This document shows, piece by piece, positions 1 through 6,611 of a stretch of DNA of 6,611 nt; the stretch's first letter is position 1; the number at the start of each line of letters is the position of its first letter. Where the stretch lies: positions 1 to 6,611 of the IMG/VR virus record IMGVR_UViG_3300029736_000184; one strand, written 5' to 3'. Under the pieces are notes generated by a model. It saw only the letters and a list, made by a program, of their open reading frames with translations, was not told the DNA's origin and did not search any database. This DNA is from a virus. Both the position numbers and the translations under genes were made by a program.

Positions 1-99
1 AAGACCAGTATTAGAGCCAAAACGAACAGACATTTTATAAGTACCAGATGCAGGCAATGAAGCCTTTAATAAACGAACACGAAAACCTAATACAGACAC
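1..99. repeat. Terminal direct repeat: 1..99 is identical to 6513..6611, the signature of a circular genome of about 6512 bp linearised with overlapping ends.
   Basis: Base-by-base comparison gives window pos p = pos p+6512 for p=1..99 (aagaccagtattagagcc...aatacagacac). A minus-strand ORF stays in frame across the junction (codon 3..1 continues at 6512..6510). Confidence 0.9.
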
Positions 100-453
100 A
101 CAATCATTAGGCAATCCAATAGACGCATAAAATTCAGAATTAAACGGAACAAAAGCCTCCCGTAAAACACCATGCATATCATAATATTCAGTAACAAGGC
201 GCAAACCAGTATAAGATACAGTATTAGATACACTAGGCATACCAGCATCAGAAAAAGGCACAAAATCTAACGTATCAAAATCATCCGATTCCATATAATC
301 CTGGGATGGCAATGCATTACTAAACGTGGAAACTGGAAGTTCCTTAGCGTCTGAAGAAGTAGCAACCATTGCAAAAGTAGTCAAAGGATATAAAATAACA
401 ACAACCAATAAAACACTCAATAATAAAATTTTACGCAACTCAATAGCAGACAT
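1..453 (-). CDS. N-terminal part (151 codons) of a 449-aa pIII-like minor coat / adsorption protein. It continues circularly into 6512..5616. Starts at ATG 453..451. Hydrophobic N-terminal signal peptide or signal anchor (MSAIELRKILLLSVLLVVVILYPLTTFAMVA...).
   Basis: Manual reverse-complement translation of 1..453. SD GGAGGT (466..461) sits 7 nt upstream of the ATG. The reading frame is identical to ORF 5616..6611 once the 99-bp terminal redundancy is removed. n-h-c signal-like N-terminus. Confidence 0.65.
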   Translation of the reverse strand, partial: MSAIELRKILLLSVLLVVVILYPLTTFAMVATSSDAKELPVSTFSNALPSQDYMESDDFDTLDFVPFSDAGMPSVSNTVSYTGLRLVTEYYDMHGVLREAFVPFNSEFYASIGLPNDCVSVLGFRVRLLKASLPASGTYKMSVRFGSNTGL

Positions 454-499
454 AAGTAACACCTCCAACTATTCGCGAAAGTCTAGTAATCAGTAAGCA

Positions 500-730
500 C
501 TAAACAGTAGGGTCCAAACTCAAGGAACCAACCGCAGAAACTATCTTGTTATGTATATCAGTGAATGCCTTAATCTGGGATTCATATAAAACAATACGCT
601 CATGAATATCAATATCCAAAGTGTCAAAGATTCTTTTATCCCGTTCATGACGGTGTTTTATAATATCCAATTTTTCCGTTGCCAATATGTCCAGATAGAG
701 CAGTTCAGTCTTATTAAAATCCACCTGCAT
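500..730 (-). CDS. Hypothetical 76-aa soluble protein (MQVDFNKTELLYLDILATEKLDIIKHRHERDKRIF...), likely helical and charged. Located between the acidic membrane protein gene and the pIII-like gene. The longer 98-aa track ORF (to 796) has no RBS.
   Basis: Internal ATG at 730..728 is preceded by AAGGAGGG (rc of 735..742) with about 7-nt spacing. Stop at 502..500. Same strand and operon orientation as the flanking genes. Confidence 0.45.
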   Translation of the reverse strand: MQVDFNKTELLYLDILATEKLDIIKHRHERDKRIFDTLDIDIHERIVLYESQIKAFTDIHNKIVSAVGSLSLDPTV

Positions 731-909
731 ATAACACCCTCCTTTACCATATCTGTAACACACGACACAGCTGGCTCCGGCCTGGCCTGGAATCACCTGC
801 AGGCGAAAATGTGTTACATAAATCCAAAACGAAGATATACAAAACGATTACGATTCGTACCCATAAATCCCCTGGCACTGTCAGCGGACAAGGAAATGAA
901 GATGTCCCA

Positions 910-1722
910 TCATATCCGTACACGGCCAGGACTGAACAGAGAGCGGTATATCACAAAAAGGAATGCTACCCCGGCAATGAAGATAATCAGCCAGTAATAT
1001 GTTCCCTCACTCTGGAGCATCGGATATTCCGCAAGGTCACTGTATACGATGTAATTATTCGCCTGGAGCCGAAAAGAACCTTCCGTGCCGGCTGACCAAG
1101 TATAATACCGGGAATCATAGGCAATATATTGCGCATCCTCCGCCGTGAACGTAGTACCATTACAAATCATATCCTTTGCATAAACCAAACGGTACGCATA
1201 CTGTCCGTGGCGGAACAGCACATAATGGACGTTCCCCAGCTTCGGAAGCACATCCGACATATAAGTTATCACTGTGGTGGAAATAGACGAATCATAAGGC
1301 GTATACGAGCTATAAACCACAGGAGAATTCACAGTCAGAATATTCGCTACCGTCTGGGCCTTTTTTGTGCGCCCAGCATTAGAAGCACTAGCAACGCGAG
1401 CATTAGAACCAGAAGCAACAGGAATATCTTCCATGTCATCATCGTCCTCAATATCAGCCATATCATCCTCATCTTCCTCATCCTCCTCCGCCAGCTCAGG
1501 ATACAAGATTTCCATTATCTGCTGATACTGGTCAAAGTCCATATCCTCATCAGGAACACTGGAAAGCCACCCATTTACATCATTCGTCTCAGCCTGAGGA
1601 TATCCCTCAGGAGCCATAAAATCCTCCTCAGTGAGCGTATACTCATCCGCAAAAGACCGAAAACAGTATAAAGCACACAGAACCAAACAAAGTAATACAC
1701 AATACATCCTCCTCCACATCAT
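910..1722 (-). CDS. 270-aa secreted and membrane-anchored protein. N-terminal Cys-rich signal peptide (MMWRRMYCVLLCLVLCALYCFRSFA). Long polyacidic low-complexity tract (EEDEEDEDDMADIEDDDDMED). Ala/Ser/Asn-rich linker, beta-rich Tyr/Thr/Ser-rich domain, and C-terminal TM helix (YYWLIIFIAGVAFLFVIYRSLF). Candidate second pIII-like minor virion or assembly protein.
   Basis: ORF track plus domain reading. ATG 1722..1720 overlaps the TGA (1721..1719) of the upstream 43-aa ORF as ATGA, indicating translational coupling. GAGGGGA motif upstream. Confidence 0.6.
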   Translation of the reverse strand: MMWRRMYCVLLCLVLCALYCFRSFADEYTLTEEDFMAPEGYPQAETNDVNGWLSSVPDEDMDFDQYQQIMEILYPELAEEDEEDEDDMADIEDDDDMEDIPVASGSNARVASASNAGRTKKAQTVANILTVNSPVVYSSYTPYDSSISTTVITYMSDVLPKLGNVHYVLFRHGQYAYRLVYAKDMICNGTTFTAEDAQYIAYDSRYYTWSAGTEGSFRLQANNYIVYSDLAEYPMLQSEGTYYWLIIFIAGVAFLFVIYRSLFSPGRVRI

Positions 1723-5243: not shown

Positions 5244-5254
5244 ATTTCCCCCTG

Positions 5255-5335
5255 TTTTTATAAAAATGAGTGTTAAGTGTTTATACTGTCAAGTAATGGC
5301 TACCGGACCGCACCGCTGGTGCGGTTCCGGCAGCC
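5255..5335 (-). promoter_or_regulatory. Intergenic region upstream of rep containing (i) a minus-strand motif ACTTGACAGTATAAACACTTAACAC (5294..5270) resembling the phiX174 origin (CAACTTGATATTAATAACACTATAGAC) and the pC194-family CTTGATA nick consensus, and (ii) a 17-bp GC-rich imperfect hairpin 5298..5335 (ggctaccggaccgcacc-gctg-gtgcggttccggcagcc). Candidate plus-strand origin with nick site, and/or packaging signal or minus-strand origin hairpin.
   Basis: Sequence read directly. 12/16 identity to the phiX nick region as recalled. The hairpin has one bulge and one mismatch and is very GC-rich relative to the genome. Its location (between the last morphogenesis gene and rep) matches the Ff intergenic region. 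Confidence 0.5.
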
Positions 5336-5346
5336 ATGCCAACCAT

Positions 5347-5619
5347 TCACTCAATACCCAGGAAAGGAATCTTACGCAACACATACATAACAATCTTATA
5401 AACCTTCTCAAAATTCGCCACCACAATCACGAACGGCAACATAATTTTAACCAAATCCATGTTAAAGAACAAGAATACAAATCCAAGACCAGCACGCATG
5501 TATTGAAAGAGTGAATCCACTACCGTTTGTATCTCTGCCGGCAACTCTGGAAGATTAATCCATCCAAATATCAGTTTCAAGGCAGAAGAAAAGAGGTTAA
5601 ACACACTTTCCAAAATCAA
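5347..5619 (-). CDS. 90-aa hydrophobic protein with multiple TM segments, in the gene VI position after the pIII-like gene. pVI-like minor coat protein candidate. TTG start overlapping the pIII-like TGA (TTGA).
   Basis: GAGGTGAT SD (rc 5627..5634) sits 6 nt upstream of TTG 5619..5617. The protein is dominated by hydrophobic stretches (GLGFVFLFF, IMLPFVIVVANF). Confidence 0.55.
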   Translation of the reverse strand: MILESVFNLFSSALKLIFGWINLPELPAEIQTVVDSLFQYMRAGLGFVFLFFNMDLVKIMLPFVIVVANFEKVYKIVMYVLRKIPFLGIE

Positions 5620-6611
5620 TTCATCATCACCTCATTCCATTTTTCCTCACATAACTGCACAAATGCCATTACCAAATAGATACTTGTTACAGTCTTAATC
5701 GCAACAACGACAAAAGAAAAATTTGTATTTAAAAATACAGTCAGGTTAAAAGACATCTCAGGCCAGAGCAGATTTTCCATGATAGTGAAAGAGGGGAGTA
5801 CCAACACACAGTCTGTCTGGGATGAATTAACAAAAATATCAATGACCTCTAATAGTAAATCAATAGGGAAGGAGAGAAACCCAAACCTTTCACTGAACCA
5901 ACTATAGAGGTCATCAAAATAAGCCTTAAAATATTCATCCGAGGGAATGAAAAGTTTCTTCAAACCCTCAATGATAAAATTTCCATGGGACTCAATGGCT
6001 GTAGTAACTTTATCCGTATTAGTATTATCATTGTCTATTTGTTCGTCCACCTTATCCATGCTTTCCAAATGTTGCTGGTTCATTTTGTTATAGAGATTTG
6101 TAAACTCACCCGCAAGCTGATTCCAAAAAGCCGTAAGCTGACTAGAAATAGTTTGTATCGTATTCTTGATAAGCTCAATAATTGTGTCCCCCTGTTCCAC
6201 CTGCTGGGCTGTATTATCAGCAATGTTACTTTGCACATCCTGTGATGTCTGTGACCCCCCAGCTGTTGTATAATCTGGTGAAACAGTAGTTTTAATAAAA
6301 GATACACTAACATAACCACCATAAGGATACACAGTTGTAGCCGTATCCTTAACATGCACACCAACATCAATAAAATTAACAGAACCAACATCAATATTTA
6401 AATCAGTATACCAATCACCAGACTGCTGAACAAAATTAATATATGCATCATTATATTGCGGGGCAGCGTTAGAATTCCCCTTTGTAGAATTAACATAACA
6501 ATCATAATATTCAAGACCAGTATTAGAGCCAAAACGAACAGACATTTTATAAGTACCAGATGCAGGCAATGAAGCCTTTAATAAACGAACACGAAAACCT
6601 AATACAGACAC
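5616..6611 (-). CDS. C-terminal 298 codons of the 449-aa pIII-like adsorption / minor coat protein, plus a 99-nt redundant copy (6513..6611) of its middle. Beta-rich Tyr/Thr/Asn-rich central domains, a coiled-coil-like Gln/Asn-rich linker, and a C-terminal hydrophobic anchor (FSFVVVAIKTVTSIYLVMAFVQL), typical of pIII C-domains.
   Basis: ORF track entry, which is truncated at the window edge with an apparent GTG. It is in frame with rc(1..453) across the circular junction. Stop TGA 5618..5616. Confidence 0.65.
   Translation of the reverse strand: MSVLGFRVRLLKASLPASGTYKMSVRFGSNTGLEYYDCYVNSTKGNSNAAPQYNDAYINFVQQSGDWYTDLNIDVGSVNFIDVGVHVKDTATTVYPYGGYVSVSFIKTTVSPDYTTAGGSQTSQDVQSNIADNTAQQVEQGDTIIELIKNTIQTISSQLTAFWNQLAGEFTNLYNKMNQQHLESMDKVDEQIDNDNTNTDKVTTAIESHGNFIIEGLKKLFIPSDEYFKAYFDDLYSWFSERFGFLSFPIDLLLEVIDIFVNSSQTDCVLVLPSFTIMENLLWPEMSFNLTVFLNTNFSFVVVAIKTVTSIYLVMAFVQLCEEKWNEVMMN

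Follow-up and report, generated by a model that had tools for sequence, protein, structure and literature searches.

Inoviruses have already been predicted in Enterocloster, and for this genus DNase-protected phage DNA has been reported from supernatants and filaments for two strains (Burckhardt et al. 2023; PMC10061712). One of the hosts concerned, E. citroniae WAL-17108, carries an inovirus (IMG/VR UViG_2513237360_000001, here L054) whose pI DNA was DNase-protected in culture supernatants, the filaments having been imaged in other Enterocloster strains (PMC10061712). Here we describe a relative of this phage that is contained in a stretch of viral DNA of 6,611 nucleotides (nt), IMG/VR record IMGVR_UViG_3300029736_000184. 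(We refer to this whole stretch, at its full length, as the window; position 1 is its first letter.) The window is very probably the complete circular genome, of 6,512 base pairs (bp), of an integrative inovirus (Tubulavirales) of the gut Lachnospiraceae genus Enterocloster, and the phage is a new complete member of the Enterocloster inovirus group that has already been described.

The E. citroniae phage encodes a Rep, a pI of 222 amino acids (aa), a coat protein, and 77-aa and 90-aa proteins that are near-identical to those of the window, and it also encodes a homologue of the 449-aa protein discussed below, with the same attachment (att) half-site beside the corresponding g3p-like gene. The DNA of the two phages is 87-92% identical over shared blocks, and they differ in the N-terminal domain of the g3p-like protein and in several intergenic or accessory stretches. 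Note that the published E. citroniae prediction, at 6,989 bp, takes in a neighbouring host recombinase as an 'integrase' (gene 30; PMC10061712 Table S5); because the circle described here shows that the phage unit ends before the recombinase, gene 30 is a host gene. When compared with phage and plasmid collections, the DNA of the window gave matches of only 3-8% coverage and 66-74% identity, namely, in the region of the ATPase and coat genes, to one rodent-faeces virus and several porcine 'Inovirus sp.' records, together with one weak match to an uncultured 4.4-kb 'plasmid' record.

The ends of the window are redundant. Positions 1-99 equal positions 6513-6611 exactly, the two ends share no exact overlap longer than these 99 bases, and the repeat unit has a length of 6,512 bp. 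The chance probability of an exact match of this length is about 4^-99, and the second-largest direct repeat in the window is one of 31 nt at 71% identity. From the overlap, the initial annotation proposed that the window is a complete circular replicon of about 6512 bp, a proposal that is borne out by prophages in long Enterocloster contigs, to which the whole circle is 100% identical. In particular, an assemblies index queried with the exact 275-aa Rep returned 917 blocks, many of them on contigs of 50 kb to 1 Mb, and the prophage loci that we compared are ten of these contigs (L003-L012; e.g. NCBI GCA_020559295.1, a 396-kb contig), the prophage-bearing Enterocloster contigs being 100-400 kb in length. 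Window positions 467..6611 correspond to locus positions 11777..5633, and window positions 1..487 to locus positions 5731..5245, at 100% identity and with no mismatches or gaps. The 99-bp stretch is present in single copy in the prophages (locus 5633-5731 in the ten contigs), which argues that the repeat is an artefact of a circle having been written as a line. It is presumably what is left when a de Bruijn-graph assembler prints a cycle as a line, 99 being a common value of k in assembly. The first copy (1..99) lies inside the g3p-like gene, where it covers codons 119-151, and the second copy (6513..6611) is the one to trim, the true genome being bases 1-6512.

The length of the prophage, 6,533 bp, is 6,512 bp plus one 21-bp att core (window 467-487) that is present at both prophage ends. 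Thus, the window is exactly the attL-attR unit closed on itself, and the position at which it was cut is arbitrary with respect to biology. Moreover, a separate human-gut contig of 1,112 bp (L051) is continuous from window position 6388 through the 6512/1 join to position 956, crossing attP as well. Two relatives are also represented by circular contigs, one (L065) of 6,063 bp with a 29-bp overlap that is broken inside Rep, and the other (L066) of 6,110 bp with a 19-bp overlap that is broken elsewhere than the window. The window may derive from replicating phage or from virions, or else from a prophage with its ends joined; the single-stranded DNA (ssDNA) and filament form of the phage are presumed.

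Closing the circle restores a gene that the ends of the window divide. The initial annotation had claimed that the minus-strand frame of an open reading frame (ORF) at 5616..6611 continues into the reverse complement of 1..453, and when the window was circularised and ORFs were called anew, this frame did run through without a stop. The end-spanning ORF reads on the minus strand from an ATG at 453 to position 1 and then from 6512 to 5616 (453 + 897 = 1,350 nt, or 449 codons plus a stop), with the 6512/1 junction falling exactly between codons 151 and 152. Its 5' part (1..453, minus strand; codons 1-151) specifies a putative signal peptide, then an acidic linker, then the first half of a beta-sandwich, and its 3' part (5616..6512, minus strand; codons 152-449 plus the stop) specifies the rest of the beta-sandwich, a conserved helical C-domain, and a hydrophobic anchor. 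We prefer the ATG at 453 over an in-frame TTG further upstream at 468 because a GGAGG Shine-Dalgarno sequence lies 8 nt upstream of the ATG; the TTG is inside the att site and is without a Shine-Dalgarno sequence. As was also foreseen, a linear ORF call truncates the gene, finding only a 331-aa, 5'-truncated ORF (5616..6611), with the first 151 codons at the other end of the window. In the prophage assemblies the gene is annotated intact (locus 5279-6628). The 449-aa protein has 468 database homologues, and those of the listed ones that are 440-470 aa long cover approximately 100% of the query. Furthermore, an alignment of 23 sequences is ungapped at the join and conserved on both flanks of it (P134 and G137 are invariant, and Y139 and Y153 are present in at least 90% of the sequences), and the join sits within a single beta-sandwich that AlphaFold2 predicts for residues ~75-235 with a predicted local distance difference test (pLDDT) score of ~90.

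The N-terminal and C-terminal hydrophobic segments that had been read from the sequence of the 449-aa protein are real, as judged by both Kyte-Doolittle hydropathy and AlphaFold2. The hydropathy of 19-residue windows rises above 1.6 at residues 1-34 and 415-439 and in a single further window (361-379) but nowhere else, and AlphaFold2 places helices at residues 3-29 and 417-448. A 'TTFA' region that is conserved among the homologues reads like a signal-peptidase site. In the alignment, a variable N-terminal half (approximately residues 30-240) is set against a nearly invariant C-terminal half (residues 245-449). The signal peptide, the C-terminal membrane anchor, and the position just before a g6p-like gene amount to a g3p-type layout, and together with the pattern of variable head and conserved tail they argue for a g3p-like role. 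Two results weigh against this assignment: neither the sequence (no Pfam match above threshold) nor the fold (Foldseek searches of PDB and BFVD) matched the N1/N2 or C-terminal domains of g3p, and the AlphaFold2 model of the C-terminal half, which is helical, is of low confidence. What Foldseek (PDB, BFVD) did return, in favour of a g3p-like role, were weak matches to carbohydrate-binding modules (CBM61, CBM16, and a hyaluronan-binding module; E ~1e-3) and to phage tail-fibre and host-specificity proteins. The 449-aa protein is thus probably a functional counterpart of g3p rather than a member of the g3p family. Its N-domain would serve host recognition and its C-domain would serve capping and release of the virion. 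The C-terminal half (residues 245-449; window 5616-6230) is nearly identical in phages whose N-terminal halves share only 40-65% identity, and its core motif, FWNQLAGEFTNLYNKMN, is also found in gene 1 of an unrelated E. bolteae-type inovirus. Such a distribution points to modular exchange of a putative host-recognition head among inoviruses.

Comparison of the circle with the prophages fixes attP, attL and attR to the base. attP (467..500, minus strand) consists of a degenerate arm at 500-487, the centre CTAGAC at 486-481, and the arm TTTCGCGAATAGTT at 480-467, and its 21-bp core (487-467) is identical at attL and attR. When compared to the 34-bp site that the phage occupies in the host, attP matches at 20 of 20 positions in the centre and right arm, and at 3 of 14 positions in the left arm. 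Read along the gene strand, attL is AACTATTCGTTAAA CTAGAC TTTCGCGAATAGTT and continues into the phage GGAGG..ATG, and attR is phage GTGCTTACTGATTA CTAGAC TTTCGCGAATAGTT and continues into host sequence. In all of the prophage loci the intact 34-bp site is at attL, where it lies 14 nt upstream of the start codon of the g3p-like gene, and a hybrid site is at attR. Note that integration separates three genes, those for the g3p-like protein, the g6p-like protein and Rep, from the operon that precedes them in the circle. A folded, single-stranded attP of the CTX type was considered and rejected, as the attP strand does not fold (z = +1.5). Relatives carry attP variants at the same genome position, in the form of a dif-like half or full site. 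In L065 (~4050-4080) it is the other arm that accompanies the centre, and the orientation is inverted; L064 (~3150-3200) carries both arms around a different centre, GTGTTG; and L066 (~340-385) also carries both arms, its centre being longer or altered. This variation suggests retargeting to different host dif variants.

The host site, AACTATTCGTTAAACTAGACTTTCGCGAATAGTT, is composed of AACTATTCGTTAAA, CTAGAC and TTTCGCGAATAGTT, that is, of two 14-bp inverted arms that are alike at 12 of 14 positions and that flank an asymmetric 6-bp centre. This 14-6-14 arrangement is the layout of a tyrosine-recombinase core site. By eye, the site could not be fitted to the 11-6-11 Firmicutes consensus of the canonical 28-bp XerCD dif, and the 14-6-14 layout fits. 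A longer hairpin around the site, with compensatory changes, was likewise rejected, as complementarity of the flanks in 37 genomes was in slight excess at the first three positions and in none further out. The exact 34-mer is present in 38 contigs (L013-L050) of Lachnospiraceae-type genomes, each from a different species-representative assembly and each stretch with one match, and the genera represented include Enterocloster, Hungatella, Lacrimispora and Lachnoclostridium. In the complete chromosome of L. sinapis JR3 the site is 50.1% of the way along, and in an E. aldenensis sequence of 6.37 Mb it is 49.8% of the way along. To the right of the site, 24 of 27 loci have a negative GC skew; on host-type left flanks the skew is for the most part positive. 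The ORFs of the right flank are mostly on the minus strand; on the right, both skew and ORF orientation have the direction expected for a terminus.

A gene for a 350-aa tyrosine recombinase lies within 34-995 bp of the site in 30 of the 38 genomes and within 7 kb in 32 of them. It reads away from the site in all 32, from the left side in 28 genomes and from the right side in 4. (In L049, for example, the site is at 3856-3889 and the recombinase gene at 3822-2773.) Across genera the recombinases are 55-95% identical, and 77-95% identical in all but one locus. The best family match is to NCBIfam XerS, followed by XerC, XerA and XerD; the NCBI annotation is only 'tyrosine-type recombinase/integrase', and the published E. 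citroniae prediction lists this enzyme as its 'integrase' (gene 30). We infer that the 34-bp site is the chromosome-dimer-resolution (dif) site of a single XerS-like recombinase. Several observations run counter to this. In two other large records the site lies at 11% and 24%, the replication origin being unplaced in these records, and skew and gene orientation on the left flank are mixed. The score against XerS, 213 bits, falls below the equivalog cut-off of 267, which is why the enzyme is best described as XerS-like rather than as XerS. In 4 of the 38 genomes (L021, L043, L044 and L048) the recombinase is on the opposite side of the site and the other flank is prophage-like, an arrangement that may reflect inversion across the site. 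Finally, in the ten contigs that carry the exact phage, no Xer-like gene was found within 5.2 kb to the left of the site.

Other elements are found at the same site. Across the intact site from the window phage, and in the opposite orientation to it, lie other inoviruses (positions 1-5200 of L003, L007, L010 and L011, and positions 1-5231 of L005, L008 and L009). One such neighbour, a phage of the E. bolteae type, encodes a Rep_trans initiator, a Zot of 254-261 aa, and a Gp8 coat protein, and a second ends ~345 bp from the site rather than at it. With inoviruses on both of its sides, the dif-like site is sandwiched within an array of filamentous prophages. In addition, a degenerate copy of the site (…GAAA TGATAC TTTCACGAATAGTT) is present ~450 bp to the right of attR at 12213-12246 in L003, L004 and L005 and is absent in the other host lineage (L006 and L008-L011); an earlier element probably left it behind as a scar.

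Integrative mobile elements exploiting Xer (IMEX) lack a recombinase of their own and use the dif site of the host. The ten phage proteins (one for each of ten ORFs) that we scanned against Pfam and PHROG gave no match to a domain of an integrase, resolvase or transposase. The attP of the phage mimics the host site, and the prophage is flanked by that site and by a dif-like one, which is the IMEX arrangement provided that the 34-bp site really is dif. For both TLC-phi and the gonococcal genetic island (GGI), attP copies one arm and the central region of dif, the other arm being degenerate (PMC5357621). Because the host module is arranged like XerS/difSL, and because the attP of the window has one good arm plus the centre as in TLC-phi and the gonococcal island, we infer that the phage is an IMEX that would be integrated by the XerS-like enzyme of its host. 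The account of the Enterocloster inoviruses in PMC10061712 makes no mention of Xer or dif, and we did not find a dif/Xer integration route described for such phages in the literature. Taken further, the observations make us lean, by a small degree, towards the view that Enterocloster, Hungatella, Lacrimispora and their relatives share an undescribed single-recombinase dif module, and that their inoviruses are IMEX that copy either arm plus the centre and insert on either side, leaving the intact dif sandwiched in arrays. If so, a phage IMEX would be on record for the first time both for a XerS-type system and in gut Clostridia, and the lysogeny of integrase-less gut inoviruses would be explained.

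The integration step could instead be carried out by a function of the phage, either its HUH Rep, at a sequence that resembles a nick site, or a small protein that has no assigned role, in which case the 34-bp site would be no more than a conserved target beside an unrelated recombinase gene. Five of the phage proteins are without an assigned function, no recombinase gene is seen within 5 kb in the contigs of the phage's own host, and HUH proteins can mediate site-specific integration elsewhere, as in the case of the Rep of adeno-associated virus (AAV). However, the target has the exact core layout of a tyrosine-recombinase site, of which the phage copies the centre and one arm, and unrelated inoviruses with a Rep_trans initiator use the same site. 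Moreover, the relative L065 uses the other arm in inverted orientation, which fits mimicry of an arm plus the centre and not a Rep nick site, and the attP strand forms no hairpin. We consider integration by a phage function unlikely, and prefer integration by the XerS-like host enzyme. Integration into a transfer RNA (tRNA), transfer-messenger RNA (tmRNA) or other known RNA gene was also considered and rejected, as ARAGORN and Rfam found no tRNA, tmRNA or Rfam family at the host site or in the window.

As regards the circle itself, the window might have arisen from at least two head-to-tail prophage copies that the assembler collapsed, neither a free episome nor virion DNA being involved. Arrays are common among filamentous prophages at dif sites, as with CTX-phi and RS1, and the site occupied by the window phage collects several elements. 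An attP junction by itself fits a free circle and tandem copies alike. Also to be set against a free circle is that the exact attP junction was found in public data in only one 1.1-kb contig (from a metagenome collection) and not in IMG/VR, although this is too small a number to indicate a frequency. Yet there are no tandem copies of the phage in the ten long contigs, and the cut in the window falls ~470 bp away from att, the branch point in the graph, which would mean that the cycle was isolated in the assembly graph, with the joined-ends form far outnumbering attL and attR in the sample. In addition, for the related inoviruses of E. bolteae and E. clostridioformis 538, secreted phage was quantified in mouse cecal contents with circle-specific primers (PMC10061712). 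The collapse of tandem copies is therefore a distinctly less likely origin than a free circle, and both the unit and the gene are identical whichever of the two applies. A reading of the 99-bp repeat as genuine, whether as the direct terminal repeat of a linear molecule or as an internal duplication, is compatible with the window sequence taken alone, but is improbable in the extreme: the stretch occurs once per contig, in the middle of an intact gene, in ten independent contigs; a real duplication of 99 nt would add 33 codons, which are seen in none of the 23 aligned homologues; and the gene content is typical of a circular ssDNA phage. Nor does a small rolling-circle plasmid, which the size, the HUH Rep and the weak match to the 4.4-kb 'plasmid' record would fit, appear to be anything but a very improbable description of the element, given its coat-like, Zot-like, g6p-like and g3p-like genes, its synteny with inoviruses of reported secretion, and the finding that no Mob or relaxase match reached threshold in Pfam. 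The window is thus best read as a complete, integrative inovirus genome in circular form.

The remaining genes agree with this reading. The genome is a small circle within the range of about 5-12 kb, and it encodes an HUH Rep and a small coat protein with a signal peptide, as inoviruses do. With a single exception, the genes are encoded by the minus strand. The plus strand is rich in A and C, and the coding strand is accordingly rich in T and G. Rep is a 275-aa HUH rolling-circle initiator (4416..5243, minus strand) with the motifs FTFTF, HFHGLF and YITKY, and it matches Pfam REP_ORF2-G2P (1.5e-13; 51.3 bits against a cut-off of 27.8) and phrog_3419 (8.6e-23). The NCBI entry for the exact Rep is 'MULTISPECIES [Enterocloster]', and the exact ATPase is likewise an Enterocloster protein. 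Between the g3p-like gene and Rep lies the gene for a 90-aa, g6p-like membrane protein (5347..5619, minus strand), the start codon of which overlaps the stop codon of the g3p-like gene (TTGA). A near-identical 90-aa protein of E. citroniae was matched by HHpred, with weak probability, to G6P of phage phiLf (PMC10061712 Table S5). Between the 90-aa gene and Rep there is a GC-rich, near-perfect hairpin of 19 bp with one bulged base (5296..5337, minus strand), which folds as DNA at -22 kcal/mol (z = -4.15; none of 200 shuffled sequences folds as well) and is a candidate packaging signal, minus-strand origin or terminator.

The 222-aa ATPase (1855..2523, minus strand) is a P-loop assembly protein of the Zot/pI-like kind, with matches to Pfam Zot, phrog_197 and phrog_1675. 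The PHROG matches are to a Zot-like protein (E 7.5e-5) and to M13 protein I (E 3e-3), and a near-identical ATPase of E. citroniae was matched by HHpred at 99.8% to Pf3 ORF301 (PMC10061712). The Pfam Zot match, at 20.0 bits, is 0.3 bit under the cut-off of 20.3, which counts against the assignment; all told, the ATPase is probably of the pI/Zot type. It is without a membrane segment, and directly behind it, in all of the prophage loci, is a conserved ORF for a 43-aa hydrophobic protein (1719..1850, minus strand) that has a Shine-Dalgarno sequence. The usual single pI may therefore be split here into two genes, with the 43-aa protein supplying the membrane segment.

Upstream of the ATPase gene are those for a 96-aa precursor of the major coat protein (2576..2866, minus strand) and for a 77-aa candidate ssDNA-binding protein (2882..3115, minus strand). 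The coat protein precursor has a signal peptide, a hydrophobic core and a basic C-terminus and matches phrog_2186, a virion structural protein (5.6e-8); HHpred matched its E. citroniae orthologue to G8P of IKe (PMC10061712). The 77-aa protein, which has no Pfam or PHROG match, is a candidate because of its position, which is that of g5p/RstB, and its gene has a strong Shine-Dalgarno sequence; HHpred matched its E. citroniae orthologue weakly to RstB of CTX (PMC10061712). The one gene on the plus strand (3498..3704) encodes a 68-aa ribbon-helix-helix (RHH) regulator of the Arc/CopG-like kind, with matches to Pfam RHH_5 (8.8e-8) and to a PHROG Arc-like repressor.

Three further proteins are encoded on the minus strand. 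A 112-aa coiled-coil protein (3943..4281), with no family match, is specified by a frame that is open to 4389, the extension overlapping a palindromic element. A 270-aa protein (910..1722; an alternative start at 1617 would give 235 aa), for which there was no match to a Pfam or PHROG family, has a signal-like segment at its N-terminus, a hydrophobic segment at its C-terminus, and an acidic region. The gene for a 76-aa protein (500..730) is the last before attP, its stop codon abutting the att site. The palindromic element occurs twice. Element A (754..832; fold z = -2.3) is upstream of the 76-aa gene, and element B (4305..4370; a weak fold, z -1.6) reads TGTAACACA, ~45 nt of GC-rich sequence, and TGTGTTACA. 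The two elements are ~70% alike and in opposite orientation, and each immediately precedes a small gene. Two ORFs, of 98 aa and 148 aa, have long N-terminal extensions that are probably translations of the palindromic element, which may itself be an operator for the RHH regulator or an ssDNA hairpin. No secretin was found among the phage genes in the Pfam/PHROG scan.

These assignments suggest a life cycle in which the HUH Rep would replicate the circle by the rolling-circle mode, the 77-aa protein would coat the ssDNA, and the Zot-like ATPase, together with the small membrane proteins, would extrude the filament through the Gram-positive envelope without a secretin. Expression would be controlled by the RHH regulator encoded on the opposite strand. 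In the proposed route to lysogeny, the XerS-like recombinase of the host would join attP to the 34-bp site, which would regenerate an intact site at attL and leave a hybrid site at attR.

It is routine for a circular contig to carry a k-mer-sized overlap that divides a gene; what the present analysis adds is exact boundaries and a probable dif/Xer route. In practical terms, the record should be trimmed to 6,512 bp, marked as circular, and rotated such that the g3p-like gene is whole; if it is left untrimmed, annotation shows only a 331-aa fragment of the likely host-recognition protein and may rate the genome as incomplete. With its Rep found in 917 blocks, the window is an exact, complete reference for a very common inovirus of the human gut. 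Secretion by this inovirus group in vitro and in mice had been reported already, and its boundaries and mode of integration had not been defined; comparison of circle and prophage now supplies the former and points to a testable Xer-type route of integration in Lachnospiraceae.

Among well-known filamentous phages, the Ff phages (M13/fd/f1, genus Inovirus) resemble the window phage in being small circles with nearly all genes on one strand, in having a G2P-type HUH initiator, a small processed coat protein and a P-loop ATPase of the pI/Zot kind, and in the placing of an adsorption protein before a small membrane protein. Unlike them, the window phage has no pIV secretin, a Gram-positive host, a pI of only 222 aa that is without a membrane segment, and an adsorption protein without a match to N1/N2; moreover, it integrates, and the Ff phages do not.

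For the host module, the closest described systems are those with a single recombinase. In the XerS/difSL system one recombinase is encoded next to an atypical palindromic site at the terminus, difSL being 31 bp in length (PMC1914069). Both XerS/difSL, of streptococci and lactococci, and XerH/difH, of Helicobacter, resemble the module described here in pairing one recombinase of ~350-360 aa with its own imperfectly palindromic site. When compared by length alone, the site described here differs from difSL (34 bp versus 31 bp), and the taxon, Lachnospiraceae, is a different one. A precedent for reading a host system from the element that exploits it is LME-1 of Legionella, the integration site of which pointed to a single-recombinase dif system (XerL), as shown experimentally; the case differs from that of the window in concerning another phylum and an element that is not a phage (PMC9765430). 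The IMEX of Vibrio and Neisseria (TLC-phi, GGI, VGJ-phi and CTX-phi) differ in that XerC and XerD act on a 28-bp dif, where the module described here would have a single XerS-like enzyme beside a 34-bp, 14-6-14 site, and the attP of CTX-phi differs from that of the window in that the latter does not fold. Nonetheless, like these IMEX, the window phage has no recombinase of its own and appears to use the dif site of its host, the intact site is kept at one end of the integrated element, and the site accommodates arrays of several elements.

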